The notes: generated from the sequence alone by a model not told the origin. A stretch of DNA of 58,306 nt from Candidatus Hadarchaeum sp. (GCA_020725055.1 DYFS01000003.1:1-58306), one strand, 5' to 3'. Shown: positions 5,111 to 48,185, counted from the stretch's first letter. Translations and numbers: made by a program.

Positions 5111-5111
5111 C

Positions 5112-8055: not shown

Positions 8056-8064
8056 TTTAGCCCC

Positions 8065-9375: not shown

Positions 9376-9404
9376 CTCGCGGGTGAAACATAAGCGGGGA
9401 GCGC

Positions 9405-27737: not shown

Positions 27738-27844
27738 CGAAAACCGCGAGATGTGCGGGCCGGGGCCAACGCTTATTTGAGCACCACTAGCTCCTTCGAG
27801 CGAAGACTTTTAACTCTCACAGATTATTTTGGTTGGGCAAGCTT

Positions 27845-30595
27845 ATGAAAGACATTTACGAGGCCGAGATTTTCAAGAAGCGTGGTTTCTACACAAAGCG
27901 TTGCGTGAGCTGTGACCGTGTCTTTCGAACGCTTGATCCCGACCGCAGGACTTGTGGCGACACCCCCTGTGACGAGTACACCTTCATAGGCAGACCCGCA
28001 ACCAAAAAGCGCTACACGCTACCGCAGATGGAAAAAGCATTTTTAAGGTTTTTTGAGCGCCGCGGACATTCCGTGATCAAACGGTACCCGGTAGTTGCCC
28101 GCTGGCGTGATGACATCTTTCTAACAATCGCCTCGATCGCCGATTTCCAGCCATGGGTGACCAGCGGTCTGGTGCCGCCGCCAGCAAACCCGCTAGTTAT
28201 CAGCCAGCCGAGCATCCGCCTGAACGACATCGACAACGTCGGGCGCTCGGGGCGACATTTCACCCTCTTTTCCATGGGCGGTCACCACGCGTTCAACTCC
28301 CGCAGGCAGCGCGTTTATTGGGTGGATGAAACGGTCGAGTTCTGTCACGAGTTCCTGACGCGCGAGCTCGGCATCAAGCCGGAGGAGGTCACCTACATCC
28401 AGGATTTCTGGGAGGGCGGGGGTAATGCTGGCGAGGACTTCGAGGTGAACGTCCGCGGCATCGAGCTCGCTACCCTCGTTTTCATGCGCTACTCGAAGGG
28501 GGATGGCAAATATGTGCCACTTCATTTGAACATCGTCGACACGGGCTACGGACTCGAGCGCTTGGCGTGGATCTCGCAGGGCACGACTTCGGCGTACGAA
28601 GCGGTCTTCGGCGAGGTTGTAGCCAAGTTGCGCGAGCTTACAGGGGTCGAACAGCCCCAGGCTGAGGTGCTTCGCGAGAATTCAAGGCTAGCGGGCATGA
28701 TGGACATCGAAACTGGCCGCGACCTGCTGGCGCTCCGGGACAAGGTTGCGGCTCGCACGGGGATGAGCATCGACGAGCTCAACCGCGTGCTCGCGCCGCT
28801 CGAGGCGATTTACGCGGTTGCCGACCACCTGCGCTGCTTGGCGTTCATGTTCGGCGATGGGATAACCCCGAGCAACGTCAAGGAGGGCTACCTGGCGAGG
28901 CTCGTGCTGCGCCGCACGTTAAGGCTGATGCGCGAGCTGAAGCTGGAGAAACCCCTAAGCGAGCTCATGGGCTTGGAGCTCAAGTACCTGCGCGACCAAT
29001 TCCCGGAGCTTTGGGAGAGGAGGGATTACATCTCGGAGGTTATCGGGCTGGAGGAAGAGCGCTACCGCGATACCATCACGCGGGGGGGCCAGCTCGTCGA
29101 ACGCGTGGCAGCGGGGCTCCGCCAAGAGGGCGAACGGGTCCTACCGACTGGCAAACTCATCGAGCTCTACGACAGCCACGGCCTTCCACCAGAGGTCGTG
29201 AAGGAGGTCGCGACGAAGGCCGGCGTGAACGTGGAGGTGCCCGAGGACTTCTACATCCGAGTCGCGAAACTCCACAGCCAGGCCAAGCGCTTGCCAGCTG
29301 CCGCGATCGCCCTGCCGAGAGCGAGGCTCGAGCGCCTGCAGAAAACAAAACAGCTTTACTACGAGTTACCCTATACCCGGGAGTTCGCCGCCAGGGTGCT
29401 CGCGAGCTTCGATGGCTTCGTCGTGCTGGATCAGACCGCCTTTTACCCTGAGGGGGGCGGGCAGCCGAGCGACGTCGGCACGCTCATCAGCCCGAAGGGA
29501 AAGGCGAACGTGCTCGACGTTCAAAAGGTCGATGGTGTGGTGGTTCACCGGGTCAAGCCAAACCCCTTCAAGGTTGGACAAAAAGTCCACGGCAAGCTCG
29601 ACTGGCTGAGGCGGGTGTCGCTCATGCGCCACCACACCGCCACCCACATCATCCTCGGAGCCGCGCGCAAAGTACTCGGAAATCACGTGTGGCAGGCTGG
29701 GGCGCAGAAGGGGGTTGAGTCAACACGCCTTGACCTATCACACTTCAAGCGCATCTCGCAGGAGGAGCTCCAGGAAATCGAGCGCCTGACGAACCGCGTG
29801 GTGATGGGGGGCTGCGCGGTAAAAACAGGCTGGATGGACCGCAACGAGGCGGAGCGGCAGTATGGATTCGACCTCTACCAAGGTGGCGTGGTGCCCGGCA
29901 AGCAAATCCGGGTCGTCGAGGTGGAGGGGTGGAACACACAGGCCTGCGCTGGCACCCACTGCGCGCGAACGGGCGAGGTTGGACCAATCAAGCTCATCCG
30001 CGCCGAGCGCATCCAGGACGGGGTCGAGCGGCTCGAGTTTGCTGCAGGTGAGGCGGCAGTCAAATTCGTACAGGGGCGTGAACGGCAGCTCCTTGGGGCG
30101 GCGGAGATCCTCCTCACGGAGCCAGAGCGGGTGGCTGCAGCAACCCGGCAGCTCTTCGAGCGGTGGAGGGCGGCGAAAAAGGAGCTTGAGAGGGCGCGGG
30201 AGCAGGCTGCGGAGCTGCGCTTGACCGACCTGCGCACGAAAGCTGTTCAAGTTGGCGCGCTTCGAGTCATTTGCGAGGTTATCGAGGGGGCTAGCGTTGA
30301 CGAGCTTATCAAGGTGGCGGGCGCTCTGATTAGGGCCGACAAGAGCATGGTCGCAGTCCTTGGAACCAAGGATGGAACCGCTCAGATCGTGGCCATGGCA
30401 GGTGATGAGGCGGTACGGGCTGGGGCCGATTGTGGGAAGATTGCAGAGGTCTCGGCAAACGTGCTCGGCGGAGGTGGAGGCGGCAGGCCGGGGCTTGGGC
30501 AGGGTGGCGGTCCTGGGATCAACAAATTGGAAGAAGCTCTGGAGATGGCCAAGAAGATTTGCGAGCAGTCACAACAGTTGCGAGCGGGCGGTTGA
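27845..30595 (+). CDS. alaS: Alanine--tRNA ligase (archaeal type)
   Basis: Archaeal AlaRS catalytic core, editing-domain motif HHTATH...H, and a C-terminal DHHA1-like region with a GGGGG loop. The ATG at 27845 is preferred over the TTG at 27833. Confidence 0.95.
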   Translation: MKDIYEAEIFKKRGFYTKRCVSCDRVFRTLDPDRRTCGDTPCDEYTFIGRPATKKRYTLPQMEKAFLRFFERRGHSVIKRYPVVARWRDDIFLTIASIADFQPWVTSGLVPPPANPLVISQPSIRLNDIDNVGRSGRHFTLFSMGGHHAFNSRRQRVYWVDETVEFCHEFLTRELGIKPEEVTYIQDFWEGGGNAGEDFEVNVRGIELATLVFMRYSKGDGKYVPLHLNIVDTGYGLERLAWISQGTTSAYEAVFGEVVAKLRELTGVEQPQAEVLRENSRLAGMMDIETGRDLLALRDKVAARTGMSIDELNRVLAPLEAIYAVADHLRCLAFMFGDGITPSNVKEGYLARLVLRRTLRLMRELKLEKPLSELMGLELKYLRDQFPELWERRDYISEVIGLEEERYRDTITRGGQLVERVAAGLRQEGERVLPTGKLIELYDSHGLPPEVVKEVATKAGVNVEVPEDFYIRVAKLHSQAKRLPAAAIALPRARLERLQKTKQLYYELPYTREFAARVLASFDGFVVLDQTAFYPEGGGQPSDVGTLISPKGKANVLDVQKVDGVVVHRVKPNPFKVGQKVHGKLDWLRRVSLMRHHTATHIILGAARKVLGNHVWQAGAQKGVESTRLDLSHFKRISQEELQEIERLTNRVVMGGCAVKTGWMDRNEAERQYGFDLYQGGVVPGKQIRVVEVEGWNTQACAGTHCARTGEVGPIKLIRAERIQDGVERLEFAAGEAAVKFVQGRERQLLGAAEILLTEPERVAAATRQLFERWRAAKKELERAREQAAELRLTDLRTKAVQVGALRVICEVIEGASVDELIKVAGALIRADKSMVAVLGTKDGTAQIVAMAGDEAVRAGADCGKIAEVSANVLGGGGGGRPGLGQGGGPGINKLEEALEMAKKICEQSQQLRAGG

Positions 30596-30616
30596 TGAGA
30601 ACAGGCCAGTGATTCT

Positions 30617-30667
30617 ATGGTTAACTGGCGAGGGATCGACGCCAAGTGGCAGCAGGCGTGGCGGTGA
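30617..30667 (+). pseudogene. Relic of the leuS 5' end (16 codons then TGA)
   Basis: ATG lies 21 nt after the alaS stop and encodes MVNWRGIDAKWQQAWR*. The genuine LeuRS N-terminus at 40919 reads VVNFQELDAKWQQAWRE. A 20-nt identical core, GACGCCAAGTGGCAGCAGGC, occurs at 30638..30657 and 40940..40959. Confidence 0.8.
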
Positions 30668-30693
30668 CGAACATCTCTGCGGTTGGCCCGACC

Positions 30694-31200
30694 ATGACCG
30701 CGGACTTCTGGGTCATAAGGCCTCAGCTTCAGATCACGAAGACCGCCAGCCCCTCCAGCATCTTCGTCGGCGAGAACGCCACAATAACCGTGACCGCCCG
30801 CAACGTGAGGAACACCGCCGCCCTCAATCCTTCTTTGTTCGACAGCCCCCTAGGCGGCCTGACCCTCATCTCAGGCAACCCTGTCATATCCGCGAATTAC
30901 CTCTGGGGTTCAGCCTCGCCCCCAAGCGTGGACATCTACGTCCGCGACACCAACACCTGGATAAATAGCTCAGAGTCCCAGTGGTGCAGTGTCACGCAGA
31001 TCGATGCGAACACTTGGCAGTTCAACTTCGAGGATCTGAAGGGCCAGCCACGCCCCGACTACGACTTCAACCAGCCCCTACTGACGGTTCGCAAGGACGG
31101 CCACTTCTACTCGGTGACCCTCGAGCGCTACGACGGCGACTACCACTCGGACATCTATGTTGGCGATGTTTTGTTCTGGTCTGGCGCAGCAGGAGTTTGA
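30694..31200 (+). CDS. DUF11/CARDB-like beta-sandwich domain protein without signal peptide (possibly a gene fragment)
   Basis: LQITKTASPSSIFVGENATITVTARN resembles the DUF11 conserved repeat domain. No signal peptide or TM helix. The ORF-track start at 30646 lies inside the leuS relic in another frame. Confidence 0.4.
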   Translation: MTADFWVIRPQLQITKTASPSSIFVGENATITVTARNVRNTAALNPSLFDSPLGGLTLISGNPVISANYLWGSASPPSVDIYVRDTNTWINSSESQWCSVTQIDANTWQFNFEDLKGQPRPDYDFNQPLLTVRKDGHFYSVTLERYDGDYHSDIYVGDVLFWSGAAGV

Positions 31201-31288
31201 GAGCAAGGAAAAAACAAGGAGCTGTGTACCTGCTCAAAGGTCGACACGACATCGGTGGGAGCAAATACTAAGGGTTCTCCCCATGCAG

Positions 31289-32638
31289 TCAGAACTCTGG
31301 CGCCCCGGCGCGTGATCGCTTGACTAAAACCGCGATGCCACCCAAGATACTGGCGATGCATAGCAGGATTAAAGGCCATTGAAGCAGCTCTAGGATCCCA
31401 GTTCCCGGAGGGCTTTTCGGTGCACCGAGGGCATAGAACTTTCCCTCCACCGAGCCGAAGTAGACATTACCGTAGGCGATAGCCGGGGTTGAGTCCACAA
31501 TATGATTCGTTTTGAAATGTTGGAGGATTACACCAGTGGAAGAGTCGACCACATATAGTCCATCTCCCCCGACAAGGACTTTGTTGTCTGCGCCCACCGG
31601 CGAGCTGTGGGTTCCCCATTCAAGGTCGGTTTTCCACATCAAGGCCCCATCGGCCATATTTAGAGCGTAAAGAAAATTCCGGCTAGTAAAAAACACTTTG
31701 CCATCCATAACCAATGTGGAGGACACAGACCAGTTCTGGGAATCGTAATACCAGATCAGCCCGCCGTTCTCTGCGCTTAAAGCATAAACCCCATCGCCCG
31801 GCAAGTCACCCATCCACCCTGCGGTTATGTAGACTATGTTGTCTACGACCACAGGTGACGCGCTTATCTCATCACCGATGTGGAACTTCCAGATAAGCGA
31901 GCCGTCATTAGCATTTAACGCGTAAACAAAACCCGTGGTGGTTTCCGGCCATTCTACTCCGGCTCCGGTGCCAAAATAGACAACACCAGCAACAACGGTC
32001 GGGGAACCTATAACATGTCCCATAATCCCATTGCCGTAGCTGTATTCCCAAATCAAATCGCTGTTATCTGCATTTAAACAAAAAAGGTACCCGTTCCAAG
32101 TGCCGATGTAGAGTCGGCTATCAATGATTACTGGGGCGCCATCGACGCCAGCTAGTCCATATCGGCGATAAACATTGAAGCGCCACATCAGCTCACCTGT
32201 TTCTGCATCTAATGCGTATATGTGGTTGTCCCATGAACCGACATAGACGCGGTTGTCGACGATAGTCGGTGATGGATCAAGAAATTGTCCTCCTCCACGA
32301 TTGGTTTTAAATTTCCAAACAAGTTCCCCGTTTTCAGCATTTAGGGCATAGATCCACAACCGTTCATTTTCCCCCTTACCGTAGTTTTCTCGCACCGAGA
32401 AATAGACTTTCCCACGCGCTACTGCAGGGGATGAAAAGATCGAGGCTCCTTGGATTTCGTACTTCCAGATTAGTGTCAGTTCACTTGGTAAGCTTGTACC
32501 CGCAATGCCCGTCCGTCGCCAATCGTGCATGAACGTTGGCCAATCGTCGGTTTGCGCGTTGACGGAAGATTGGGCTGCTAACGACGTACCGACCATCGAT
32601 ATGATGAACAATGCCGCGATGAGCACGATTTTCTTCAT
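31289..32638 (-). CDS. Secreted PQQ-like beta-propeller repeat protein with C-terminal TM anchor
   Basis: Signal peptide MKKIVLIAALFIISMVGTSLAAQS. Repeated SSP.V..G.VY.G...G.LYALNA..G.L.W blades. C-terminal hydrophobic helix followed by KRSR. Confidence 0.8.
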   Translation of the reverse strand: MKKIVLIAALFIISMVGTSLAAQSSVNAQTDDWPTFMHDWRRTGIAGTSLPSELTLIWKYEIQGASIFSSPAVARGKVYFSVRENYGKGENERLWIYALNAENGELVWKFKTNRGGGQFLDPSPTIVDNRVYVGSWDNHIYALDAETGELMWRFNVYRRYGLAGVDGAPVIIDSRLYIGTWNGYLFCLNADNSDLIWEYSYGNGIMGHVIGSPTVVAGVVYFGTGAGVEWPETTTGFVYALNANDGSLIWKFHIGDEISASPVVVDNIVYITAGWMGDLPGDGVYALSAENGGLIWYYDSQNWSVSSTLVMDGKVFFTSRNFLYALNMADGALMWKTDLEWGTHSSPVGADNKVLVGGDGLYVVDSSTGVILQHFKTNHIVDSTPAIAYGNVYFGSVEGKFYALGAPKSPPGTGILELLQWPLILLCIASILGGIAVLVKRSRAGAPEF

Positions 32639-32710
32639 ACGCTTCCCAAATTATCTTCGTCTGAACTAACTTCATCAAAACACTTATTTAAGTAGGGTGG
32701 TCGAAAGTCG

Positions 32711-34375
32711 ATGAGAGGTATTAGCTTGAGACCAATATTTTCACTCCTATTATGTGTCTTGCTGTTCGGCTCGATACTCCCATCTTCTTTAATTGCGGCG
32801 CCCCTGGCGCACGGTACCAGCTCTGGTAAAACTTTGAGTTCTTCCTTAGATGCCCTAGCTGTTAAATCCTCTACGCAGGCAACGAACAACTCGGTTCTCA
32901 TCGCAGATGAAAGCTACCAAACAAACGCGACCTCAAGCGCCGATGCTGGACCTGTAGAAAATGAAATCCTGAGATTTGTCGTTGAAGAGTTGACAAATCC
33001 GCCTGGCGTCGATGCTGCTCTGGGATATCTCAACGAATTCCACACTGCGCTCGAAAAAATCGAGAACTTCCTTAAGGCAGGGAACGAAGACCTGCTTGGA
33101 CCCACGATCGAAGAAGCCAACGCTTCCTTGTCGGCTTTCGAGAACGCCGTACCAGAGATGTTAAAATCGCTCGAGAATGAATTTTCAGGCGAATACGTTG
33201 TAGGGTTCAACACTTGGCTAGAGAACTTCCTCGGTGCGGCAAACGGGCTCCTCGAGTATTTGCAAGGCACGAGCATCGAAGCATCCGAAGCGTTACCCCT
33301 AATCGCCAACGTTCGACAGGTGCTTTTAGAATTGCCAACTGGGGAGCACTCGGTTTACTTCGTGGAGGAGGGCGCATGGTTCGAGGATCCTTATGGCAAC
33401 TGGTTACCAAGGGAAGATACCTATACCTTCGTGACATACCCTCGAGAAAAAGTCGTCTGGAAGTTCAAGATTTTCAACGACGAGCTGCGCTGGCCATTCT
33501 GGGACCCACCCCGGGCAACAATTGACCTCAAAATCACGATGTGGGATTTCTCAACCTCTCGCCCGGATTACCCGACCTGGACCTTCCTGCCTTTTGAGAT
33601 AGGTGCCCGAACCATCCTCACAGTCTATGGAGAGTTTACCGCTCCATTCGAGCCAGCTAACTACGGTTTTCTGATCGAATTTGACTGGCAGTCCACAAGC
33701 GGCGCAAGCGGCAGCGAGGGCTTCGGGATAATTCTGAGGGTCAAGAATAGAAATCCGACAGCTTCACGCCAGCCCGTTCGTCCAGAAAATGGTCCTTGGG
33801 GCACCACATTTAGATTTTGGACTGAATACAGAGATCCAGATGGCCATCCTCCAGCTTACGTCCGAGTCTATATAGACGGATTACCATTTGGCATGATATT
33901 CGTATCCGGCGATTACAAAACTAAGGCGATATACGAATACTGGTGGCAAACGGCTTCTCAGGATATCGGTGCCCACACCTATTACTTTGAGACATGGGAC
34001 GGCTATGGCGAGATATATCGCTCTGCAACGGATTCGGGTCCGTCCGTCACCAAGCGCAACTCGATCCTGAGGTACCCCACCACTTCCCTCACTCGGGAAT
34101 GTAACTTCTTGGGTTGGGGTTGGGGCGGAAGCCTAACCGACTCAGAGACGGGAGAGTACTTAGCCGGACGGACCGTGAAGTTGTACAAATCCGATGGCAC
34201 TTACCTCGCCGCCACGACGACAGATTCCACCTATGGGATGTTCATCTTCGCGGCAAGGGATTACGGGCTGCCGAACCTCGCGCCAGGAACGTATTATTAC
34301 TACGCCGCTTGGGACGGCGACGATTTATATGCGGGCGCGAAATCCGAAACCGTTACACTCATTTTAACGGAATGA
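32711..34375 (+). CDS. Secreted protein (signal peptide; helical N-terminal region; beta-rich and carboxypeptidase-regulatory-like C-terminal region); probably the N-terminal part of the next ORF
   Basis: Signal peptide MRGISLRPIFSLLLCVLLFGSILPSSLIAAPLA. Ends at TGA 34373..34375, in the same frame as the ORF starting at 34379. Confidence 0.75.
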   Translation: MRGISLRPIFSLLLCVLLFGSILPSSLIAAPLAHGTSSGKTLSSSLDALAVKSSTQATNNSVLIADESYQTNATSSADAGPVENEILRFVVEELTNPPGVDAALGYLNEFHTALEKIENFLKAGNEDLLGPTIEEANASLSAFENAVPEMLKSLENEFSGEYVVGFNTWLENFLGAANGLLEYLQGTSIEASEALPLIANVRQVLLELPTGEHSVYFVEEGAWFEDPYGNWLPREDTYTFVTYPREKVVWKFKIFNDELRWPFWDPPRATIDLKITMWDFSTSRPDYPTWTFLPFEIGARTILTVYGEFTAPFEPANYGFLIEFDWQSTSGASGSEGFGIILRVKNRNPTASRQPVRPENGPWGTTFRFWTEYRDPDGHPPAYVRVYIDGLPFGMIFVSGDYKTKAIYEYWWQTASQDIGAHTYYFETWDGYGEIYRSATDSGPSVTKRNSILRYPTTSLTRECNFLGWGWGGSLTDSETGEYLAGRTVKLYKSDGTYLAATTTDSTYGMFIFAARDYGLPNLAPGTYYYYAAWDGDDLYAGAKSETVTLILTE

Positions 34376-34378
34376 TAT

Positions 34379-37300
34379 GTGCCCCCACCACCCCCTCCCC
34401 CACTAGCCGACACGACCGCGCCAACAATCACCGGCTTACAAGCCCAGCCTAGCCCGTTCAACCCAACTCTCCAAAATACCCAAATAAGCTTCACGCTTTC
34501 TGAGCCGGCGAACTACACCATAACGATAAGCGACTTCAACGATATTGTGCGGAGAACCTTCACAGGCTCTGGTACTGGAGAAATAACGTGGAATTGGAAT
34601 GGAACCGACGACTACGGCTTACTGGTCAACGATGGGCCTTACACCATTACCATTAATGCGGAGGATCTAGCTGGCAACGATGCGACACCAGTAACGACAA
34701 ACGTGGTGGTGAACGCCGTGGATTTTCAAATCCAGAGGGGTTTCGATCCAGCGGCGTTTAACCCGAACTTCGAAACCACGACGCTTTGGTATGAACTCTC
34801 CGAGCCTGCCACGGTGACCGTCACCATAACAGACGCCGCGGGAGCCACCGTCAGACACTTGGTTGTTGGACAGGACAGAGGAGGGGGTGCAAACTCCGTG
34901 GTCTGGAACGGCACCAACGATGGCGGTGCTCTCTTGCCAGGCGGAACGTATAGGGGGGTGATAACCGCAACGAGCTTCGCGGGTGAAGCCCCCGACTTCG
35001 TCCCTCCAGCTCCGCCAACGGTAACAATAGATTACGGGCGCCCCGCAATCACGGCTTGGGCGGACGACGACCCGCTCGACCGCACTATGGGTGAGACTAG
35101 CGTTAGCATAACCTACACGATCGCATCACCCACTGGGGCAAACCTGCAGGTCATGATTACGATATTTGATGAAGCTGGAAACGTGGTGAACGAGACTCCA
35201 TGGATCCTCCAGCTCCCTGGTACGTACACATGGACTTGGCTTGGGACGGATGCCGCAGGCAATCCAGTTCCGGATGGGCTGTATCCATACAGAATAAGGG
35301 CGAGAACGCCTCCACCAGCTCCTGTTTGGGCGAACACCAGGTGGGGAACAGTAGTTGTAATTGACACCAATGTTCAAATAACTCAAAGCGCCGATGGAGT
35401 TGTTCAGCTTCTGCACCCTGCGGGCTACAACGTTAACATCGGACCAGCACCAGCTGGTCCGCTCACCGAAGCAGCACGCGCAATACGTGCACAGGGGCTT
35501 GGGTACCTGCACAGCCAAATATACGACATTACCTCAACCCCGAATACTTTTGACCCACCAGCGCTCCTGATGTTCAGCTATGACCCAGCTCTCTACGGGC
35601 CTAGGCTCCAGCTGTACAGGTTCAATCCCGCCGCTAACGCGTGGAATCCCGTCCCGAACCAGTTCGTCGATGTTGTCAACAATAGGATAATCGCCGAGGC
35701 GGTGCAGCTCTCGATATTTGCCATCCTCAGCCTGCCTCCTGACCGGACGCCGCCGGTATCATTTGTCGAAAACATCGAGCCTTATTGGCAAAACGAGTTG
35801 CCTTTCATGATAACCGCCCAAGCAACCGACGATCGAAGTGGCGTGGAGAACGTCGCTCTGTGGTATCGATATAGTGATGATAATGTTGTGTGGGGCCCCT
35901 GGGTCTTGTTTGGTATCGATGATATACCACCGTGGTCGTGGTCCTTCACAGCACCAAACGGCGATGGGCACTATGAGTTTTACACCGTTGGCGTTGACCG
36001 GGGTGGCAATATTGAAAAGGCTCGGGAGAAAGCCGACGCTCGGGCTGGCGTGGATACAACACCACCAGAATCCTCCGTTAATCCCATCTCCCCCCATTGG
36101 CAAAAATCGCTCCCGCTGACCATAACAGCCCAGGCGAGCGATGCGCTGAGCGGCGCCAAGGAGGTCATGCTGTTTTACCGCTACTCAGCCGACAACCTGC
36201 GCTGGAGTGGCTGGAAGCTCTACGGCATCGATGGAGAGGAGCTCTGGAGCTGGGAGGTCATGCCCGAGAACGATGGTTACTATGAGTTCGGCACAATAGC
36301 CATAGACCGAGCCGGAAACGTTGAGCAGCCCATCGTCGAATCGAAAACTCTCACAGGCGCGTTCGTGGGCTGGTACGCTTACAATTTGTGGACCGATTAC
36401 GGCGAGTGGAGCTGGTCCGAGATATCCGGCGAGCACATGTACGGCTACGATGAGGATGGAGCAGATCGTTTAGATGTGCTAGTGTACCCGCCCCCGCTCA
36501 CGTCAGACGAGGAGATGACTGTCTGGGTAGAGGTGAAGATAGATGGACCAGCCGTGGAGTTGGTTGAGGTACCATTACCGTGGGATTCTTTATTGGAAGC
36601 ACGGTTTGGTCCTGTGACGATCAGATCCATTAGACCCGCACAGAAATGGAACGTTTTTGTTGACGAGATTTACGGGACGGCGGAAAACCCGAACGGCGAT
36701 GGCAATGGGAACGGCTGGAACGGAAATGGGTGGAACGGGTGGAACGGGTGGAATGGTAACGGTTGGAATGGTTGGGACGGGTGGGAAGAGGATGAGTGGG
36801 ACATACCTATTGAGCCTGAACCTAGAGAGATCCACAAGAGGTACGAAGGCGCTGTAACAGCAAAAGTCAGGATCGCGTGGCCGGAGGCGACCGCGAGCGC
36901 TGGGGTAGACACGAAGCCACCAGAATCCCTATTAGATCCGATAACCCCCTACTGGAGGAATGCGGGCACGGTTCCGTTTGAGATAACAGCGGTGGCATCC
37001 GATGCCTTCACCGGAGTCGAGAACGTTGAGTTGCTCTACCGCTACTCTCTTGACAACCTGAACTGGTCCGAGTGGAGGGCTTACAGAGTTGACGATGAGG
37101 CACCTTGGTCATGGGAATTTAACGCACCCGAGGGAGACGGCTTTTATGAGTTCGTGAGCATCGCAAGGGATCGCGTGGGCAATGCGGAAAGGATGAAAGG
37201 GGTTGTTTCGTTCATTCATGTGGATGGAACGATCTCCACCATTTCATCCCCGCCAACCACCGAGGGCTGGAGGGGGCTCGCTTGGGATGGAGGTGACAAG

Positions 37301-40300
37301 ATATACATGCGCACCCAGGGTGAACTCTGGAGTTACTCCATTTCCCGAAACACATGGACGCGCCTGACTGCCATGCCAGCGAGCGGGGCGAGCTTCAACA
37401 GCCTCGTTTGGGCGGACGGATATCTCTTTGCGCTTAGAGGGTATTGGGCCGATCCAAAGCACGAATTCTGGCGCTATTCCATCTCCGCAAACCGCTGGGA
37501 GAGCATGGCGTCAACTCCCATCGGGATTCATCGGGGGGCACTGGTGTGGACTGGCGGCGATCACATCTACACTTTGGACAATGGCGGGATCTTCCTGCGG
37601 TACTCCATCTCAAGCAACAGGTGGGATACTCTATCGTTCCCGTCCAGCATGCAGGCAGCAGATTTGGCATGGGACGGGCGGGATCACATCTACGCGATCT
37701 TGGAGAGGACCTACTACTCATTGGAACTCTGGAGGTACACGATTTCATCCGATAGCTGGGTTAAATTGGAGACGATCTCAGGTGTTACACCCGTGCAAGC
37801 ACCCCACTACCCATACCCCATAACCATGGTTTCGATAATGGTGCCCGGCGACGGATATCTGTACCTCGCGTGGCAAGATGGCAGGATTTGGAGGTACGAG
37901 TTACTCTCAAGAGAACTGATGTCCGTTGCCTCCGGGATTGGGACCACCTGGGACGCGGTATGGAACGGCGAGAGCATCTACACCGATGGGGGTTGGAAGT
38001 ACACGCCGTCTGTGGTGACGGTTGTAACTGGGGCGATGTGTGGCGTTGATACAATACCACCGACCTCAAGTGTCGACCCGATTTCCCCATATTGGAAGAA
38101 CTCTGGGATGCTTCCATTTGAGGTGAGCGCAACCGCTTCTGACCACCTCAGTGGAGTTGGAGGTGTTGAGCTCTGGTATAGGTACTCGGTCGATAACTTA
38201 GTATGGGAAGACTGGGTGCTTTACGACGTTGATAATTCCGAGCCTTACTCTTGGACATTTGACACTTCCAATGGTGATGGGTACTATGAATTTTACAGCG
38301 TGGCAACCGATAGAGCTGGCAATAGAGAGATATCTCCGGGGATAATCCTCCATCCCAGCGACGACACGTACATCAACTTCTCATCCCCAGCCATCAATTT
38401 CGGCTCTAGCCCCTATCTGCTCTTCAACGTGGAGGACGGAGAAGATGACATCAACCGCGCCTTCTTCAAATTCAATCTCAATTTGCCGGCAGAAACGACG
38501 ATAGTCGCGGCAACATTGAACATATATCAACTCGATGAAGACGGGGACCCCCAGCCGATCGAGGTGAGGGCGGTCGAGAACGATGAGTGGACCGAGAGTA
38601 CCCTAACATGGAAGAATCAGCCGAGTTATGGGGATGCTTTGGATGCGAAGTACACCTCCGTCCAAGGCTACCGCTGGCTCAGCTGGGATGTCACGAGTTT
38701 CGTGAAAATGGAAATCGAGGGCGATAAGCAGGTAAGTTTTTGCTTAAAAGTGATGGAAGAGAGGGCGCCCTCAGGGGATATGAGCAAACAGGCGTCGAAG
38801 GAATACTCAGACATCACATACCACCCGTACCTTTTGATCATCACGCCCTCCGACCTCCAAGCCGATGCTCTGGCGGGTGTGGATACGACGTCACCGACCT
38901 CGAGCATTAACCCAATCGAGCCTTATTGGCAGAATGCATTTATGATTCCATTCGAGGTGACCGCTGCGGCGCTTGATGAGCTCAGCGGCGTGGCGCGCGT
39001 CGAGTTCTGGTACCGATATTCCTCAGATAACCTAACGTGGGGACAATGGGATCCACTTGGCGTCGATGAGGTTAAGCCTTGGGAGTTGACGTTCAGCGTT
39101 CCCAGAGGGGATGGTTTCTATGAGTTCAGCAGCATGGCGATCGATGCAGCTGGCAACGCTGAGCTTCTCGAGCAGGTGTTGGTAGATGATTTCACCGCTC
39201 CCCTCGATACAGGGCTTTGGTCAGTCGGAAAGGTCGTGGTCAAATACGACGACGTTCAGGTCTCAGACGGCTCACTAAGGTTGAGCGCAAGGGCGGCAAA
39301 GGCCGGAAAGTACGGCGCAATTTATGCTGTTTCGAACGAGCTTCTGGATCTAACTCAAGGCTGGGTCATAGATGTCCAAATGGCGGTTCCGACGGACAAC
39401 GCGCCCGAGGACTTCAGGAGCGAGTTCTACCTCGCGTCCACGTTTACCACAATTGCGAACCCCCATGAGCTGCCTGACTGGCTGAGGGTTTCCGCTAGCG
39501 TTAATCGTGAGGGGGTTCGATGGATGCTCCAGCGCAAGCGATTGAGCGCCGGGGTGGGGTTGGGCACCCTCTACACGAGCGGCCCGACTAACAAGCTAGG
39601 TGGAACTTGGCGGATAGCCATCAACGGCGAAAACTTTGCAGTCTGGCTGGACGGCCAACGTGTTGAAAACTGGAGAGCGCACGAACTCCCATTCACGAGC
39701 GCCCACATGTACCTAGTCGAGCGCACGAAGGTCGCCCCCGTTTATACAGTGAGCTTCGATCATGTTAGGGTACAGGAGTTTTTGGCAGATGTACGCATTG
39801 GTGTCGACACGTCTCCCCCTGAGTCGTCCGTGAACCCGATCGAGCCCTACTGGCAAGAAACGTTGCCGTTCGGGATTTCTGCCACAGCGTCTGATGCGCT
39901 CAGCGGAGTCGCATCGGTAGAACTCTACTATAGGAGTTCGATCAACAGCATCAACTGGACATGGTGGAAGCTCTTCGGCACAGACGATACAGCTCCGTAC
40001 GAGTGGTCTTTCACGGCTCCCGATGGCTACGCCCTCTATGAGTTCTATTCTGTCGCGACCGATGTGGCAGGGAATGTTGAGGGGGCACCCGAGGTTGCAG
40101 ATGCATCGTGTGGAGTTGTAATCCCCGCGACGATCGACATCGATCCTGACACCCTCAACCTCCGAAGTCAAGGCCGATGGATAACCGCGTACATCGAGCT
40201 GCCGGGCGGCTTTGATGTGGCAAACATCGATGTGAGCACCGTGGCTCTCGAGGGTGACATCTTCCTCGAGGGGATTCTATCTTCCGAGCTTCATCCGGCT

Positions 40301-40873
40301 GAGACAGGTGACTATGACAGCGATGGCGTGCCCGACATGATGGTGAAGTTCGATCGCTCGGCCGTACAAGAACTGGTAAGTGTTGGCGACAACGTTAAGC
40401 TGATGGTGGTCGGCAAGTGGGGCCTAGCGCCATTTAGGGGCAGCGACAACATCCGGGTAATCGAGCCCGGCGAAGGGCAGCAAGACAATGGAAATAAACC
40501 CGAGGTTCCGCCCGGCCAGTCCGGCGGGCATCCCGGTCAGGGGCAGGGGCCGCCAGTAACGCCCCCGGGACAGGGGGGTCAATCCCCAAGCCAAGGTAAC
40601 CAAGGGGTTCAAGGCAACGAAGGAGGGCAACAAAACCAAGGTCAGGGGCCACCTCAAACGCCACTAGGGCAAGGGAACGATCAGAGCCAAAGCAATCAAA
40701 ATAAACAGCAAGGAAACCAGGGTCAGGGGCAAGGGAACAGCCAAAGCCAAGATAATCAAAGCAGTGATCAAGGAAATGGGCGAGGTCAGGGCAACTCGAA
40801 CGGTCAAAACAATGGTGATCAAGGCCAAGGAAACGGGCAAAATCAGGGCCGAGGGAAAACCAAGGAGAAGTAG
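34379..40873 (+). CDS. Giant multidomain cell-surface protein (2164 aa as an ORF)
   Basis: Domain order, recognised by eye: 3 FlgD-Ig-like domains, 2 copies of a ~95-aa repeated module, a GWN repeat, module 3, a Kelch-type propeller, module 4, a DNRLRE-like domain, module 5, a ConA/LamG-like domain, module 6, a C-terminal beta domain, and a Q/G/N-rich tail. Recognised motifs are PSPFNP...ITWNWNGTDD (FlgD-Ig-like), GVDTxPPxS...P.W....PF.I.A.A.D..SGV..VEL.YRYS.DN..W..W (module), RYSISSNRW blades (Kelch-like), and D.YI......NFG....L......D..RAF.KFNL...............L.IY...........V..V....W.E..LTW.NQP (DNRLRE-like). There is no signal peptide, and the ORF begins GTG followed by poly-Pro. Confidence 0.85.
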   Translation: MPPPPPPPLADTTAPTITGLQAQPSPFNPTLQNTQISFTLSEPANYTITISDFNDIVRRTFTGSGTGEITWNWNGTDDYGLLVNDGPYTITINAEDLAGNDATPVTTNVVVNAVDFQIQRGFDPAAFNPNFETTTLWYELSEPATVTVTITDAAGATVRHLVVGQDRGGGANSVVWNGTNDGGALLPGGTYRGVITATSFAGEAPDFVPPAPPTVTIDYGRPAITAWADDDPLDRTMGETSVSITYTIASPTGANLQVMITIFDEAGNVVNETPWILQLPGTYTWTWLGTDAAGNPVPDGLYPYRIRARTPPPAPVWANTRWGTVVVIDTNVQITQSADGVVQLLHPAGYNVNIGPAPAGPLTEAARAIRAQGLGYLHSQIYDITSTPNTFDPPALLMFSYDPALYGPRLQLYRFNPAANAWNPVPNQFVDVVNNRIIAEAVQLSIFAILSLPPDRTPPVSFVENIEPYWQNELPFMITAQATDDRSGVENVALWYRYSDDNVVWGPWVLFGIDDIPPWSWSFTAPNGDGHYEFYTVGVDRGGNIEKAREKADARAGVDTTPPESSVNPISPHWQKSLPLTITAQASDALSGAKEVMLFYRYSADNLRWSGWKLYGIDGEELWSWEVMPENDGYYEFGTIAIDRAGNVEQPIVESKTLTGAFVGWYAYNLWTDYGEWSWSEISGEHMYGYDEDGADRLDVLVYPPPLTSDEEMTVWVEVKIDGPAVELVEVPLPWDSLLEARFGPVTIRSIRPAQKWNVFVDEIYGTAENPNGDGNGNGWNGNGWNGWNGWNGNGWNGWDGWEEDEWDIPIEPEPREIHKRYEGAVTAKVRIAWPEATASAGVDTKPPESLLDPITPYWRNAGTVPFEITAVASDAFTGVENVELLYRYSLDNLNWSEWRAYRVDDEAPWSWEFNAPEGDGFYEFVSIARDRVGNAERMKGVVSFIHVDGTISTISSPPTTEGWRGLAWDGGDKIYMRTQGELWSYSISRNTWTRLTAMPASGASFNSLVWADGYLFALRGYWADPKHEFWRYSISANRWESMASTPIGIHRGALVWTGGDHIYTLDNGGIFLRYSISSNRWDTLSFPSSMQAADLAWDGRDHIYAILERTYYSLELWRYTISSDSWVKLETISGVTPVQAPHYPYPITMVSIMVPGDGYLYLAWQDGRIWRYELLSRELMSVASGIGTTWDAVWNGESIYTDGGWKYTPSVVTVVTGAMCGVDTIPPTSSVDPISPYWKNSGMLPFEVSATASDHLSGVGGVELWYRYSVDNLVWEDWVLYDVDNSEPYSWTFDTSNGDGYYEFYSVATDRAGNREISPGIILHPSDDTYINFSSPAINFGSSPYLLFNVEDGEDDINRAFFKFNLNLPAETTIVAATLNIYQLDEDGDPQPIEVRAVENDEWTESTLTWKNQPSYGDALDAKYTSVQGYRWLSWDVTSFVKMEIEGDKQVSFCLKVMEERAPSGDMSKQASKEYSDITYHPYLLIITPSDLQADALAGVDTTSPTSSINPIEPYWQNAFMIPFEVTAAALDELSGVARVEFWYRYSSDNLTWGQWDPLGVDEVKPWELTFSVPRGDGFYEFSSMAIDAAGNAELLEQVLVDDFTAPLDTGLWSVGKVVVKYDDVQVSDGSLRLSARAAKAGKYGAIYAVSNELLDLTQGWVIDVQMAVPTDNAPEDFRSEFYLASTFTTIANPHELPDWLRVSASVNREGVRWMLQRKRLSAGVGLGTLYTSGPTNKLGGTWRIAINGENFAVWLDGQRVENWRAHELPFTSAHMYLVERTKVAPVYTVSFDHVRVQEFLADVRIGVDTSPPESSVNPIEPYWQETLPFGISATASDALSGVASVELYYRSSINSINWTWWKLFGTDDTAPYEWSFTAPDGYALYEFYSVATDVAGNVEGAPEVADASCGVVIPATIDIDPDTLNLRSQGRWITAYIELPGGFDVANIDVSTVALEGDIFLEGILSSELHPAETGDYDSDGVPDMMVKFDRSAVQELVSVGDNVKLMVVGKWGLAPFRGSDNIRVIEPGEGQQDNGNKPEVPPGQSGGHPGQGQGPPVTPPGQGGQSPSQGNQGVQGNEGGQQNQGQGPPQTPLGQGNDQSQSNQNKQQGNQGQGQGNSQSQDNQSSDQGNGRGQGNSNGQNNGDQGQGNGQNQGRGKTKEK
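35741..36020 (+). repeat. Giant-protein repeat module 1 (~95 aa Ig-like unit; coordinates approximate)
   Basis: DRTPPVSFVENIEPYWQNELPFMITAQATDDRSGVENVALWYRYSDDNVVWGPW...GDGHYEFYTVGVDRGGN. Confidence 0.8.
36050..36327 (+). repeat. Giant-protein repeat module 2
   Basis: VDTTPPESSVNPISPHWQKSLPLTITAQASDALSGAKEVMLFYRYSADNLRWSGW...NDGYYEFGTIAIDRAGN. Confidence 0.8.
36905..37190 (+). repeat. Giant-protein repeat module 3
   Basis: VDTKPPESLLDPITPYWRNAGTVPFEITAVASDAFTGVENVELLYRYSLDNLNWSEW...GDGFYEFVSIARDRVGN. Confidence 0.8.
38045..38329 (+). repeat. Giant-protein repeat module 4
   Basis: VDTIPPTSSVDPISPYWKNSGMLPFEVSATASDHLSGVGGVELWYRYSVDNLVWEDW...GDGYYEFYSVATDRAGN. Confidence 0.8.
38879..39166 (+). 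repeat. Giant-protein repeat module 5
   Basis: VDTTSPTSSINPIEPYWQNAFMIPFEVTAAALDELSGVARVEFWYRYSSDNLTWGQW...GDGFYEFSSMAIDAAGN. Confidence 0.8.
39803..40083 (+). repeat. Giant-protein repeat module 6
   Basis: VDTSPPESSVNPIEPYWQETLPFGISATASDALSGVASVELYYRSSINSINWTWW...DGYALYEFYSVATDVAGN. Confidence 0.8.
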
Positions 40874-40880
40874 TTGCACT

Positions 40881-40888
40881 TTTTATAA
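40881..40888 (+). promoter_or_regulatory. Putative TATA box for leuS
   Basis: TTTTATAA lies about 31 nt upstream of the GTG start at 40919, inside the right end of the inserted island. Confidence 0.4.
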
Positions 40889-40918
40889 TTGGCTGGCTAG
40901 ATGTAAGTCGGCGATTTC

Positions 40919-43816
40919 GTGGTGAACTTTCAGGAGCTAGACGCCAAGTGGCAGCAGGCTTGGCGCGAGGCAAAGCTCTTCGAGGCCGAACCCGATGGGA
41001 GGCAGAAGTTCTACCTCACGGTCGCCTACCCTTACGTTTCGGGCCCCATGCATGTTGGCCACGGGCGCACCTACACGGTGCCCGACGTCATTTCACGCTA
41101 CAAGCGGATGCGGGGTTACAACGTGCTGTTTCCCATGGCATACCACTTCACGGGCACCCCGATTGTCGGGGCGGCGAAGCGCGTGGCGCGCAGGGAGCCG
41201 CAGTTCATCAAGGTCCTCACCGAGCGCTACGGGGTGAGTGGGGACGAGTTCAAGAAATTTGAGGATCCCCACTACTTCGCGAACCACTGGGCAAAGGTCA
41301 GCGATCTCAGCTACCGCAAGGGGATGGAATGGCTCGGCTACTCCATCGACTGGCGCCGCGAGTTCACCACCGTCGACCCGCACTACAGCCGCTTCATCAC
41401 CTGGCAGTACCACAAGCTGATGGAGGCCGGGCTAATCGTCAAGGGCGAGCACCCGGTGAAGTGGTGCCCACGCTGCCAGAACCCCGTGACAGACCACGAC
41501 CTGCTGGATGGGGAGGGCGTGGGCATCGTCGAGTTCACCCTGCTGAAGTACCGCCTCGGAGACTACGTGCTGCCCGCCGCGACGCTCAGGCCGGAGACCG
41601 TCTTCGGCGTCACCAACCTGTGGCTGAACCCGAACGTTGAGTACGTGCTCGCGGAGGTCGACGGTGAGCGGTGGGTGGTGAGCAGGGAGGCAGTCGAAAA
41701 GCTGCGCGAGCAGGGGCGCGAGGTCGGCGAGGTCCAGAAGTTCTCAACCCGTGAGCTGATGGGGAAAGAAATCGAGGTGCCGCTTACCCACAAGCGGGTC
41801 CTAATCCTGCCCGCACCGTTTGTCGACCCGGATAACGCAACTGGTGTCGTCGGCTCGGTCCCGGCGCACGCCCCCTACGACTACGTGGCGCTACTCGAGC
41901 TCCAGAAGAAGCCAGAACCGCTGAAGCAGTGGGGCACCGACCCGGCGGCGGTGCAGAAGCTCGGTGCAATCTCTCTCATCGAGGTCAGGGGCTTCGGCGA
42001 GTCCCCGGCGGTCGACGTGGTCAAGCGGATGAAGATTAAGAGTCAAACCGACCCGAAGCTCGAGGAGGCGACGGCGGAGGTGTACCGCAACGAGTTCGCG
42101 AAGGGCGTTATGCGCGACTGGGTGCCCAAGTACGGGGGGATGCAGGTCTCGGAGGCCAAGGCGCAGGTTAGGGATGATCTCGTGTTTAGCGGGGAAGCGG
42201 CGGCGATGTACGAGTTCTCGGCGAAACCCGTCACGTGCAGGTGCGGGGCAAAGTGCTGCGTGAGGCTAGTCAAGGACCAGTGGTTTTTGAACTATGCCGA
42301 TGAGGCTTGGAAAGAAAAGGCGCGCGCGTGCCTGGCGCAGATGCACCTCGTTCCCCCCGAGACGCGCGCGCAGTTCGAGCATGTCGTCGGGTGGCTCCAC
42401 GAGTGGCCATGCACGCGGCACATCGGGATGGGCACAGTGGCCCCCTGGGACTCGAACTGGATGATTGAATCGCTTAGCGACTCGACAATCTACATGGCGT
42501 ACTACACGGTCTCGCACATCCTAAAAACGGTTGAGCCTGACAAGCTCACAGACGAGGTCTTCGACCACATCTTCTTGGGTAAGGGCGATGCTGCCGCGAT
42601 CGCTAGGGTGACGGGCATCGAGGAGCAAAAGCTTCGGGCGATGCGCGGGGAGTTCGAGTACTGGTACCCGCTCGACTACCGGATGTCCGCGAACGAGCTC
42701 ATCCCAAACCACCTCACTTTCTTCACGTTCCACCACGCGCTACTCTTCCCGCAAAAACACTGGCCGCGAGGCATCGCGTCGTTCGGTATCGCGGTGCTCG
42801 AGGGGCAAAAGATGTCGTCCTCGAGGGGCAACATCGTGGCAATCAACGAGGCAGTTCGGAAGTACGGGGCGGACGCGGTGAGGCTTTACCTGATGTCAAC
42901 GGTCGAACCGTGGCAGGACTTCGACTGGCGCGCCCACGAGGCGGACGCGATGCTCCGCCACCTCGAGCGGTTCTACGCGCAGGCGCAGGAGATCGTGGCT
43001 CTCCCCGCCCCCGGGCGCCCGAGCTTGGGGCTGCCGGAGCGATGGATGCTCAGCAAGCTGCAGAGGCACGTCCGGGAGGCGACGGAGGCGCTCGAAGGCT
43101 TCGAGGTGCGGAAGGCGCTGCAACACGCGCTCTTCTCGCTCATGCAAGATTTGAGGTGGTACCTAAAACGCGCCAGGGGGGACGAGGCGTGCGCGTACGT
43201 GCTCAAGCGGGTGCTCGATACTTGGGTGCGGTTGCTCGCCCCATTCGCGCCGCACACCTGTGAGGAACTCTGGCACCAGATGGGCAAGGAGGGGTTTGTC
43301 TCGCTCACGCCTTGGCCTAAGGTCGAGGAGGGCATCATCGACCGCGCCGCTGAGTTCGCGGAGGACTACCTTGCGGGCATCTCCGATGACATAAGCAACA
43401 TCCTGCGCGCGGTAAAAATCGAGAGGCCTACGAGGATATGCCTGTACGTGGCGCAAGACTGGAAGTGGCGGGCCTACCGCATGGCGCTCGAGCGTGTGCG
43501 CGCCGGCAGGGTTGAGGTAAAAGAGCTCCTGCGCGAGGTCGAGCGCGGGCTGGGTTTGAGGCTGTACACGGCGGATCTGGCGAAATTCCTGCATCGCGTC
43601 GTCCAGGAGTTCAGGGCAATGCATGAGGAGCGGTTGGCTGAGCTCGCGGGGGTGGAGCTAGATGAGTTCCAGGTGCTTTTTGATGCCACCGGTTTCCTCA
43701 GCAAACAGTTCGGTGCGGGGGTCAAGATATTCATGGCGGATGACGCGACTCGGTACGACCCACAGGACAGAGCGCAGCTCTCCAAGCCCATGAGGCCAGC
43801 TATCCATGTGGAATGA
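40919..43816 (+). CDS. leuS: Leucine--tRNA ligase (archaeal type)
   Basis: HVGH (HIGH) motif in PYVSGPMHVGHGRTY, the KMSSS (KMSKS) motif, and CP1 editing-domain blocks. Length is 965 aa. GTG start. Confidence 0.95.
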   Translation: MVNFQELDAKWQQAWREAKLFEAEPDGRQKFYLTVAYPYVSGPMHVGHGRTYTVPDVISRYKRMRGYNVLFPMAYHFTGTPIVGAAKRVARREPQFIKVLTERYGVSGDEFKKFEDPHYFANHWAKVSDLSYRKGMEWLGYSIDWRREFTTVDPHYSRFITWQYHKLMEAGLIVKGEHPVKWCPRCQNPVTDHDLLDGEGVGIVEFTLLKYRLGDYVLPAATLRPETVFGVTNLWLNPNVEYVLAEVDGERWVVSREAVEKLREQGREVGEVQKFSTRELMGKEIEVPLTHKRVLILPAPFVDPDNATGVVGSVPAHAPYDYVALLELQKKPEPLKQWGTDPAAVQKLGAISLIEVRGFGESPAVDVVKRMKIKSQTDPKLEEATAEVYRNEFAKGVMRDWVPKYGGMQVSEAKAQVRDDLVFSGEAAAMYEFSAKPVTCRCGAKCCVRLVKDQWFLNYADEAWKEKARACLAQMHLVPPETRAQFEHVVGWLHEWPCTRHIGMGTVAPWDSNWMIESLSDSTIYMAYYTVSHILKTVEPDKLTDEVFDHIFLGKGDAAAIARVTGIEEQKLRAMRGEFEYWYPLDYRMSANELIPNHLTFFTFHHALLFPQKHWPRGIASFGIAVLEGQKMSSSRGNIVAINEAVRKYGADAVRLYLMSTVEPWQDFDWRAHEADAMLRHLERFYAQAQEIVALPAPGRPSLGLPERWMLSKLQRHVREATEALEGFEVRKALQHALFSLMQDLRWYLKRARGDEACAYVLKRVLDTWVRLLAPFAPHTCEELWHQMGKEGFVSLTPWPKVEEGIIDRAAEFAEDYLAGISDDISNILRAVKIERPTRICLYVAQDWKWRAYRMALERVRAGRVEVKELLREVERGLGLRLYTADLAKFLHRVVQEFRAMHEERLAELAGVELDEFQVLFDATGFLSKQFGAGVKIFMADDATRYDPQDRAQLSKPMRPAIHVE

Positions 43817-44490: not shown

Positions 44491-44550
44491 CACGTTCCGT
44501 TTTGACTGCACATGTCTGCCTATTTTGGGGCATCTAGAGCAGCTTTCAAA

Positions 44551-44634
44551 CTAGCCGACATAGGTTGAAACCCAAGCGACACTATTCCCTACCATCTAAA
44601 TACTTTCCGTTGCTTTTGCGTAGAGTTCTGTAAT
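44551..44634 (+). repeat. Island repeat copy R1 (core CTAGCCGACATAGGTTGA plus ~65 nt of extended similarity to R2)
   Basis: Direct comparison with 46403..46483. Shared blocks are CTAGCCGACATAGGTTGA, ACACTA-TCCC, AAATAC-TTCCGTTGC and GTTCTGTAAT. Confidence 0.85.
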
Positions 44635-44677
44635 TCGCCGTCCGGGACTTGTTTCCTCGTGGAAGATCCCGCGCGGC

Positions 44678-46287: not shown

Positions 46288-46402
46288 CTATTTGGTTGAT
46301 TTATAATTTATGATAAAATCTCGGAATTTATAAAGATTATGTAGGGCGGGTGCGAAACTTGTTAATCAATAAAGGGGGAGGAGTATGGCTCTTTTTCCCA
46401 AT

Positions 46403-46483
46403 CTAGCCGACATAGGTTGACCCTAATGGCAACACTACTCCCCTCATTCAAATACCTTCCGTTGCCGCTGTTTGTTCTGTAAT
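46403..46483 (+). repeat. Island repeat copy R2
   Basis: The 18-nt core is identical to R1, and the extended region is similar. See R1. Confidence 0.85.
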
Positions 46484-46635
46484 CTGTTGACCGAGTGCTG
46501 TAATTTGCTGACCAAGCCCAGTTTCGTCAAGAATTCGCCCGCAATTCCAGCCCACGCGCGTTTTTGGGTTGATTTTCTCCATTTTCTAAAACTCCACAAG
46601 GAATGGGAGGAGGCGCGGGAAAAGGAGGCGAGGCA

Positions 46636-47181: not shown

Positions 47182-47238
47182 ACTCCGAATATCAGAAGCA
47201 TAGGGCAGTGCGGCCCTGCCCACCGAGTAGACTCATCT

Positions 47239-47991: not shown

Positions 47992-48185
47992 GGTCCAACC
48001 TCCGCCTGAATATATCGGGCCTTATGTTATAAACCATTTGTGCGACGTATGCCGGCGCTGTCGGGGTCGTCGACAAACAGCCTCCTCTCTCCCCGCCGCA
48101 TTCAAAATCGTTGGTGGCCGTTAAAACCGGAATTTTACCCGTTCAAAAAGAAAAAAGCGGGGTAGCGTCGCCAAGGAGTTCAACT

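Follow-up and report, generated by a model that had tools for sequence, protein, structure and literature searches.

Homology-facilitated illegitimate recombination, which combines a one-sided homologous anchor with an illegitimate join, has been described in naturally transformable bacteria; we know of no description of it in archaea, or as a recurrent site-specific phenomenon. The atp6 gene of Allomyces macrogynus is reportedly a gene hybrid made by a mobile endonuclease open reading frame (ORF), as Paquin, Laforest and Lang are said to have described in 1994. In fungal mitochondria, a LAGLIDADG or GIY-YIG ORF brings in a foreign C-terminal gene segment that replaces the native one, and a relic of the native segment survives downstream, where it is closest to the corresponding sequence of sister species (PMC3630166). 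Such mobile ORF (mORF) gene hybrids have been described in Glomus sp. for atp6, atp9, cox2 and nad3 (Beaudet et al. 2013, PMC3630166). In T-even phages, free-standing homing endonucleases (seg and mob, for example mobE; PMC2790892) carry out intronless homing. Here we describe the junction between alaS and leuS, the genes for alanyl- and leucyl-tRNA synthetase (LeuRS), in a contig of Candidatus Hadarchaeum sp. (GCA_020725055.1 DYFS01000003.1:1-58306). The window that we analysed is this entire contig of 58,306 nt, and its LeuRS places it in the Hadarchaeota. At this junction an island of surface-protein genes stands between alaS and a chimeric leuS, and the reading that we favour, with moderate confidence, is a gene-end replacement insertion within the first ~20 codons of Hadarchaeota leuS, a recurrent hot spot of recombination.

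The gene order L11-L1-L10-P1-alaS-leuS-DUF434 was conserved in ~25 Hadarchaeota loci taken from GTDB genomes and from metagenomes, which we designate by L numbers. In most of these loci, the closest relatives of the window included, leuS followed alaS after a gap of 10–35 nt, which represents the empty site. The LeuRS proteins of these closest relatives were ~80–82% identical to that of the window. Two sets of loci served as references throughout: group A is the native, closest clade (L001, L002, L081/L082 and L084), and group B is a separate clade with an NFQEL leuS start (L004, L005 and L007). A junction alignment with L081, L084 and L001 showed that the 3' end of the window's alaS (stop codon TGA, 30593–30595) and the 21-nt spacer behind it match group A. 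Judged by gene order, these loci show that alaS and leuS were ancestrally adjacent; an earlier reading of this stretch, made without database searches (hereafter the sequence-only reading), had proposed that the two genes were once neighbors and had predicted an empty site in relatives, which is what the ~25 loci, group A among them, contain. The comparison supports the view that everything between the two copies of the leuS start in the window is an insertion.

The first of these copies is a relic. An ATG at 30617, 21 nt after alaS, opens MVNWRGIDAKWQQAWR and is followed by TGA (30617–30667). The relic differed from L084 at 2 of 47 positions and from L081 at 3 of 47, compared with 10 of 47 for the window's own working copy. 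Its similarity to native leuS ended abruptly at 30663, after GTGGCG, and this position is the left junction. The left join truncates both of its sides, namely leuS at nt 47 and a cargo gene for a DUF11-repeat protein, and because the left end cuts a repeat-protein gene the join looks non-homologous (illegitimate). The working leuS starts at the GTG at 40919 (VVNFQELDAKWQQAWRE), although the gene caller took the second GTG, at 40922. Both copies hold the 20-mer GACGCCAAGTGGCAGCAGGC, which occurs exactly twice in the window against a chance expectation of zero, even with 3 mismatches allowed. The 20-mer is part of a wider direct repeat of 53 nt at 77% identity (30611–30663 versus 40913–40965), which includes 6 nt upstream of each start codon. 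The sequence-only reading had placed the relic, the leuS start and the exact 20-nt core at these positions, and we found the same.

In the working copy, the 5' end of leuS resembled other lineages rather than group A. Its first 47 nt showed a single difference from L083, 3–4 differences from L004, L005 and L007, and 8 from the native sequences of L081 and L084. Residues specific to group A were missing up to about residue 106 (I33, I46, G/S68, E90, K94 and K102) and were present from about residue 123 onward (WAK.SD). Over nt 1–330 the distance to group A (0.244) was greater than that to group B (0.204), and all later 330-nt segments were nearest group A. Bootstrap resampling placed group A nearest in 0.25% of replicates for nt 1–240, in 4% for nt 1–340 and in 100% for nt 341–2895. 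We relied on distances and bootstrap values because a simple count of group-A-specific bases was noisy, the window branching outside the sampled group A; the maximum chi-square breakpoint of that count fell near the 3' end of the gene and was not used as evidence. A donor search found no LeuRS N-terminus closer than 90.6%. The right crossover is homologous and lies far downstream of the core, inside leuS at about nt 240–340, because recombination in the core would leave native sequence where leuS is foreign. The HIGH-motif block, the most conserved stretch in the first third of leuS, lies just before this crossover zone. The working LeuRS ORF is in frame, and all of the expected domains are present.

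The foreign sequence also extends upstream of the start codon. In alignments, the 45 nt between leuS and the stop codon of the preceding gene, which encodes a 2164-aa surface protein (p2164), were homologous to the leuS upstream regions of L012, L013 and L024, all of them lineages in which leuS has its own promoter. The p2164 stop codon lies only 7 nt from the TATA-like element of this imported region. This homology bears out the proposal of the sequence-only reading that the right end of the island supplies leuS with a new promoter (TATA-like TTTTATAA, at 40881) and a replacement start. Taken together, the alignments and distances show that the leuS 5' segment and its predicted promoter are foreign and that the relic is native. 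The features of the window are listed in Table 1, together with the other occupied sites described below.

Table 1. Features of the alaS-leuS region in the window, and occupied alaS-leuS junctions in other Hadarchaeota loci.
Locus	Feature	Position (nt)	Strand	Remarks
Window	alaS (alanyl-tRNA synthetase)	27833..30595	+	Pfam tRNA-synt_2c, tRNA_SAD, DHHA1; native
Window	native leuS-start relic, 47 nt, 16 codons	30617..30663	+	then TGA, 30665-30667
Window	20-mer, left copy, GACGCCAAGTGGCAGCAGGC	30638..30657	+	conserved DAKWQQA coding sequence
Window	DUF11-repeat gene, probable remnant	30664..31200	+	weak Pfam DUF11; one repeat and C-terminal domain
Window	secreted PQQ/BamB-type beta-propeller, 449 aa, signal peptide	31289..32638	-	Pfam PQQ_2, Beta-prop_ACSF4
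Window	554-aa secreted protein (p554), rare family	32711..34375	+	single homologue
Window	2164-aa surface protein (p2164)	34379..40873	+	Pfam Ig, FlgD-Ig, CBM96 domains; internal repeats D1-D4; Q/G/N-rich tail
Window	predicted imported leuS promoter and short leader	40874..40918	+	TATA-like TTTTATAA at 40881-40888
Window	foreign leuS 5' segment, ~240-340 nt	40919..41258	+	nearest NFQEL clade and other non-A lineages
Window	20-mer, right copy, GACGCCAAGTGGCAGCAGGC	40940..40959	+	exact match to left copy
Window	working chimeric leuS, intact 965-aa ORF	40919..43816	+	Pfam; group-A type from ~nt 341
Window	occupied site: relic 47 nt (MVNWRGIDAKWQQAWR), insert 10.3 kb			surface-protein genes
L017	occupied site: relic 51 nt (MVNWQDIDEKWQEAWRD), insert 1.5 kb	8506-10004		intact 383-aa protein, HTH repeats and two LAGLIDADG_3 stretches
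L018	occupied site: relic 57 nt, insert 0.85 kb	4678-5534		truncated 190-aa endonuclease homologue without first LAGLIDADG motif
L016	occupied site: relic ~21 nt, insert 1.1 kb	8918-10001		HEPN-like and nucleotidyltransferase pair
L169	occupied site: relic 31 nt, insert 2.8 kb	3214-6001		PIN pair, RHH/ParE pair, one unknown gene
L170	occupied site: left junction beyond contig end, insert at least 1.4 kb	215-1416		endonuclease 63% identical to that of L017, 10 nt upstream of leuS

We scanned the related loci for a second leuS-start motif and found that the structure recurs. A relic, an insert and a foreign leuS 5' segment were present together in four other species with a visible relic (L016, L017, L018 and L169). 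LAGLIDADG endonucleases occupied three of the other sites (L017, L018 and L170), and pairs of the toxin-antitoxin type occupied two (L016 and L169). The leuS of L017 was nearest that of L014 (0.08–0.25; body 0.12) except over nt 1–240, where it was nearest L170 (0.21) and L014 was outside the top five. Because this 5' segment is nearest that of L170, which also bears an endonuclease, the endonuclease gene and the leuS 5' segment must travel together. The leuS bodies of L016, L169 and the empty-site locus L083 were only 0.11–0.13 apart, but their 5' segments were 0.20–0.27 apart; this indicates that the replacements were independent of one another and that the cargo turns over. The comparison of loci indicates at least five independent origins of the structure: one each in the window, L016, L169 and L018, and one for L017 and L170 together, whose endonucleases and leuS 5' segments are related.

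Two of these sequences came from the same metagenomic genome, MAG026 (JBFLWG01), which holds two leuS alleles, L014 and L017, at ~82% nt identity; the L017 relic is L014-like. L014 is on a 7-kb contig and has AT-rich non-coding DNA before leuS instead of alaS, whereas the L017 leuS follows alaS with the endonuclease insert between them. Either this bin is mixed, or the genome contains leuS twice.

The cargo of the window was identified by Pfam as a DUF11-like fragment, a PQQ propeller and ORFs of 554 and 2164 aa, as in the sequence-only reading. The DUF11 fragment lacks a signal peptide; the first ATG within it is at 30694. Its residues 12–85 match a repeat that is found 6–32 times inside proteins of 900–6000 aa, so that the fragment is probably the 5'-truncated 3' remnant of a large surface-protein gene. 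A single homologue of p554, at 57% identity, was found among 5.8 billion proteins. It is encoded on L088 (ENA ERZ27293393, 3.9 kb), a contig without flanks that is the sole other occurrence of the cargo module and that keeps the gene order of the island: PQQ propeller on the minus strand, p554 homologue and p2164-like gene, at 43–57% aa identity (43% for the syntenic propeller). All non-coding gaps in the island were shorter than 90 nt. As a side observation, the p2164 tail (window 40620–40870) is a low-complexity, Q/G/N-rich stretch of ~100 residues built from imperfect 57–60-nt tandem repeats (D2, D9).

The GC content of the insert was 0.539, compared with 0.595–0.611 in the flanks, which agrees with the lower GC seen in the sequence-only reading. 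As evidence of foreign origin, however, this proved to be a weak marker. Low GC is not diagnostic here because the native, syntenic DUF434 gene has a GC content of 0.55 (0.62 at third codon positions, GC3), and because the GC3 of the DUF11 fragment (0.78) is host-like and differs from that of the other three cargo genes (0.54–0.62). Together, a conserved site that is empty in relatives, an accessory cargo of surface-protein genes and a deviating GC content give the insert the features of a genomic island.

Under the gene-end replacement reading, the incoming foreign DNA would have brought the cargo together with a leuS promoter and, from the leuS of another lineage, the initial few hundred nt. 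On the right side, it would have recombined by homology within leuS, just past the HIGH-motif block (~nt 240–340). On the left side, it would have been joined without homology to resident leuS nt 47, leaving the 47-nt relic behind alaS and the 5'-truncated DUF11-repeat gene beside it. The outcome would be a leuS that is intact but chimeric, and that is predicted to be read from the imported promoter rather than by read-through from alaS. The occupied sites share an anatomy in which a native relic of 21–57 nt is followed by cargo that varies, an imported promoter, 240–340 nt of foreign leuS and then native leuS; this anatomy fits double-strand-break repair, or one-sided homologous recombination, from a heterologous template that carried its own leuS start.

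The trigger of such events may have been an endonuclease. Free-standing LAGLIDADG endonucleases would cut the leuS start, and repair would pull in whatever adjoins the leuS start of the template; we regard this step, taken alone, as tentative and less likely than not. Because an endonuclease gene occupies the site in three lineages, the conserved leuS start may be a homing site, in which case the foreign tract would be a co-conversion tract and the relic would mark the point of the break or join. A broader proposal, more doubtful than the trigger step, is that free-standing HTH-LAGLIDADG endonucleases home to the conserved leuS start and travel with a replacement promoter and 5' segment, and that their breaks serve as an entry port for unrelated cargo ranging from toxin-antitoxin pairs to a 10-kb island.

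Several observations weigh against the favored reading and its endonuclease step. The nearest leuS 5' segment, that of L004, is still 14% different from the window's, and the donor search gave no locus with this cargo beside leuS. The mixed composition of the cargo (GC3 of 0.78 versus 0.54–0.62) suggests that its arrival may not have been a single step. No endonuclease gene or remnant was found in the window's island, where tblastn with the endonucleases of L017, L018 and L084 returned noise; tblastn for toxin-antitoxin remnants within the island likewise returned only noise. An enzyme directed at the 20-mer could still attack the working copy, in which this sequence is unchanged. Finally, among 80 endonuclease relatives in a metagenome scan, one only (L102) was near leuS, and it had no relic. 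With this single case in 80, the wider endonuclease family is not leuS-specific; only the subgroup of L017, L018 and L170 is at the site.

The main rival is a stepwise origin, which we consider unlikely. A small selfish cassette (a homing endonuclease or toxin-antitoxin system with its own leuS start and promoter) would have made the relic and the chimera, the surface genes would have come later, and the cassette would have been lost, which would leave the 10-kb cargo without any connection to the event behind the duplication. Turnover of cargo at this site is consistent with such a history, since the sisters L016 and L169 (bodies 0.11 apart) differ both in their toxin-antitoxin-type cargo and in the length of their relics. 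The same can be said of the degenerate endonuclease in L018, the mixed composition of the island, and the presence of the PQQ/p554/p2164 trio as a self-contained module in L088. The junctions of the window argue in the other direction: the relic abuts the truncated DUF11 gene at 30663/30664, only 7 nt separate the end of the last cargo gene from the TATA element, and no trace of an earlier cassette is present. A later replacement of cargo would have needed an exact deletion of the old cassette to both junctions.

Far less probable is an integrative element, whose footprint the sequence-only reading had seen in the two copies of the leuS start. According to this explanation, an integrase-type element targeted the leuS 5' end, recombined in the core and carried a replacement copy, its integrase having since been lost or being encoded elsewhere. 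The direct repeat, whose two copies share the exact 20-nt core, is what such an element would leave, as is an element end that brings a gene start and promoter. We nevertheless rejected the 20-mer as an attachment (att) core, as it is conserved coding sequence for DAKWQQA and is identical in the leuS of six empty-site species (L081, L084, L083, L004, L007 and L008). Strand exchange within the core was rejected because the working leuS is foreign for ~240–340 nt past it and the relic stays native-type for 6 nt beyond it, to 30663. Fixed attachment boundaries were rejected because the relics end at ~21, 31, 47, 51 and 57 nt in the five lineages; the cargo elsewhere at this site is, moreover, too small for integrase-type elements. 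The left end of the island cuts a gene, and there are no terminal inverted repeats at the island ends. The sequence-only reading had itself remarked that the island contains no integrase or other mobility gene, and a Pfam scan that covered every ORF of the island and ~40 of the larger ORFs on the 58-kb contig agreed, detecting no integrase or transposase.

A purely internal origin is just as improbable as an integrase-type element. Here the leuS start would have been duplicated locally, or converted from another leuS copy in the same genome; the copies would then have diverged and unrelated genes would have been inserted, horizontal transfer playing no part. The two leuS alleles of MAG026 (L014 and L017) do show that second copies or mixed populations exist. 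However, 10 of 47 positions distinguish the working 5' end from the relic, compared with 1 of 47 for L083, a member of another clade, and the promoter is homologous to those of other lineages; divergence in place would not converge on the synonymous sites of another clade.

The contiguity of the window was examined on three further contigs that carry an identical p554 (L085, L086 and L087). L085 (JGI 3300029892) extends from alaS through both junctions and leuS and is 99.92% identical to the window, the differences being four mismatches and a 9-nt indel. L086 and L087 come from two Logan runs and are 100% identical to the window across the left junction. The 9-nt indel of L085 falls in the p2164 tail or nearby, giving a protein of 2167 aa compared with 2164 aa in the window. 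An assembly chimera joined at the repeated 20-mer, which a single metagenomic contig with a repeat prone to mis-joins might raise, has a negligible chance of being correct, because L085 spans both junctions with an indel of its own, the left one is also present in two Logan assemblies made from separate runs, and unique sequence flanks every junction on each side. The sequence-only reading had called for a check of contiguity, and with the junctions reproduced in three independent assemblies we rejected a misassembly.

Further features were seen elsewhere on the contig and in its relatives. A 396-aa LAGLIDADG_3 ORF (window 20699–21889) is located in a low-GC patch (0.43; 20548–21938) and is flanked by two tRNA genes that were not detected by ARAGORN. 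One of them (20548–20651) carries the anticodon GGC and a G3:U70 pair, and its T-loop region is 37 nt long, which probably reflects a non-canonical intron; the other, a tRNA-like sequence (21817–21938), has a ~45-nt insertion and is overlapped by the 3' end of the ORF. We saw no duplicated gene end around this ORF, whose LAGLIDADG protein is distantly related and which lies 9 kb upstream, without a visible link to leuS. A second low-GC insertion (0.43–0.46) at window 44500–49000, between DUF434 and UDG, contains an AbiEii toxin gene (44678–45625), its probable partner (45607–46287) and unannotated ORFs. In L081/L082, DUF434 is followed directly by UDG, RNase_H_2 and YjbQ; in L084, a Fic gene lies in the DUF434-UDG gap and a LAGLIDADG gene after UDG. 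From these gene orders, the gap looks like another variable spot. Other mobile elements occur in this neighborhood in the relatives: L081/L082 have a TnpB/Cas12f-like gene (1104–2399) between the D-aminoacyl-tRNA deacylase gene and ftsZ, which the window does not have, and L170 has an NrdD gene with LAGLIDADG-containing inteins (6485–10277).

The locus shows that an essential archaeal gene can exchange its promoter and first ~100 codons for those of another lineage while gaining a 10-kb island, without any integrase having been found. The recurrence of the structure, with LAGLIDADG endonucleases at three of the occupied sites, points to a mechanism by which islands form and housekeeping genes become mosaic in uncultured archaea, one that has so far been known mainly from fungal mitochondria and phages. 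The locus also shows that exact repeats flanking an island, when they lie in conserved coding sequence, are by themselves no evidence of an att site. In addition, leuS is a common phylogenetic marker, and in these genomes it is chimeric at its 5' end. If the proposed mechanism is true, these loci would be an archaeal, 5'-end version of the mORF hybrids, and genomic islands would be acquired through the action of homing endonucleases.

How the locus compares with integrase elements and with phage homing can be stated briefly. Integrase elements with target-end replacement, typically at tRNA 3' ends, resemble it in that they duplicate a gene end and provide the copy that functions; they differ in that the window has no integrase that we could find, no crossover in the core and no defined ends, the relic boundaries varying between occurrences. 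In intronless homing in T-even phages, too, a free-standing endonuclease gene lies between conserved genes, and its spread by double-strand-break repair with co-conversion would account for the foreign tract of 240–340 nt in leuS. The phage cases differ in that they are not known to involve a duplicated relic or a promoter replacement, and a link between the window's cargo and an endonuclease is conjectural. With homology-facilitated illegitimate recombination the window shares one homologous anchor, inside leuS, and one non-homologous join, which truncates leuS at nt 47 and the DUF11-repeat gene.

The closest known analogue appears to be the mitochondrial mORF gene-end replacement, mirrored here to the 5' end. 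In both systems a foreign end replaces the resident end of an essential gene in frame, a native relic nearest to sister species survives beside the insert, and the inserted end clusters elsewhere. L017 and L018 have an endonuclease ORF between their two copies; in L170 such an ORF is found upstream of leuS, with the left junction off the contig. The differences are that here the 5' rather than the 3' end is replaced, so that a promoter must come too, and that the setting is an archaeal chromosome rather than an organelle. In the window, the native relic is nearest the close relatives and the foreign working copy is an intact, in-frame ORF; the space between the copies is filled by 10 kb of surface-protein genes, with no homing-endonuclease ORF among them, and endonuclease activity in L017 and L170 is predicted from their sequences. 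By their anatomy, L017, L018 and L170 fit the mORF hybrids, and the window has the same architecture at the same site, although we do not file it as a member. Gene-end replacement itself was already known; what is new here is a replacement of the 5' end and promoter of leuS that carries an island of surface genes, at a repeatedly used hot spot of the Hadarchaeota.

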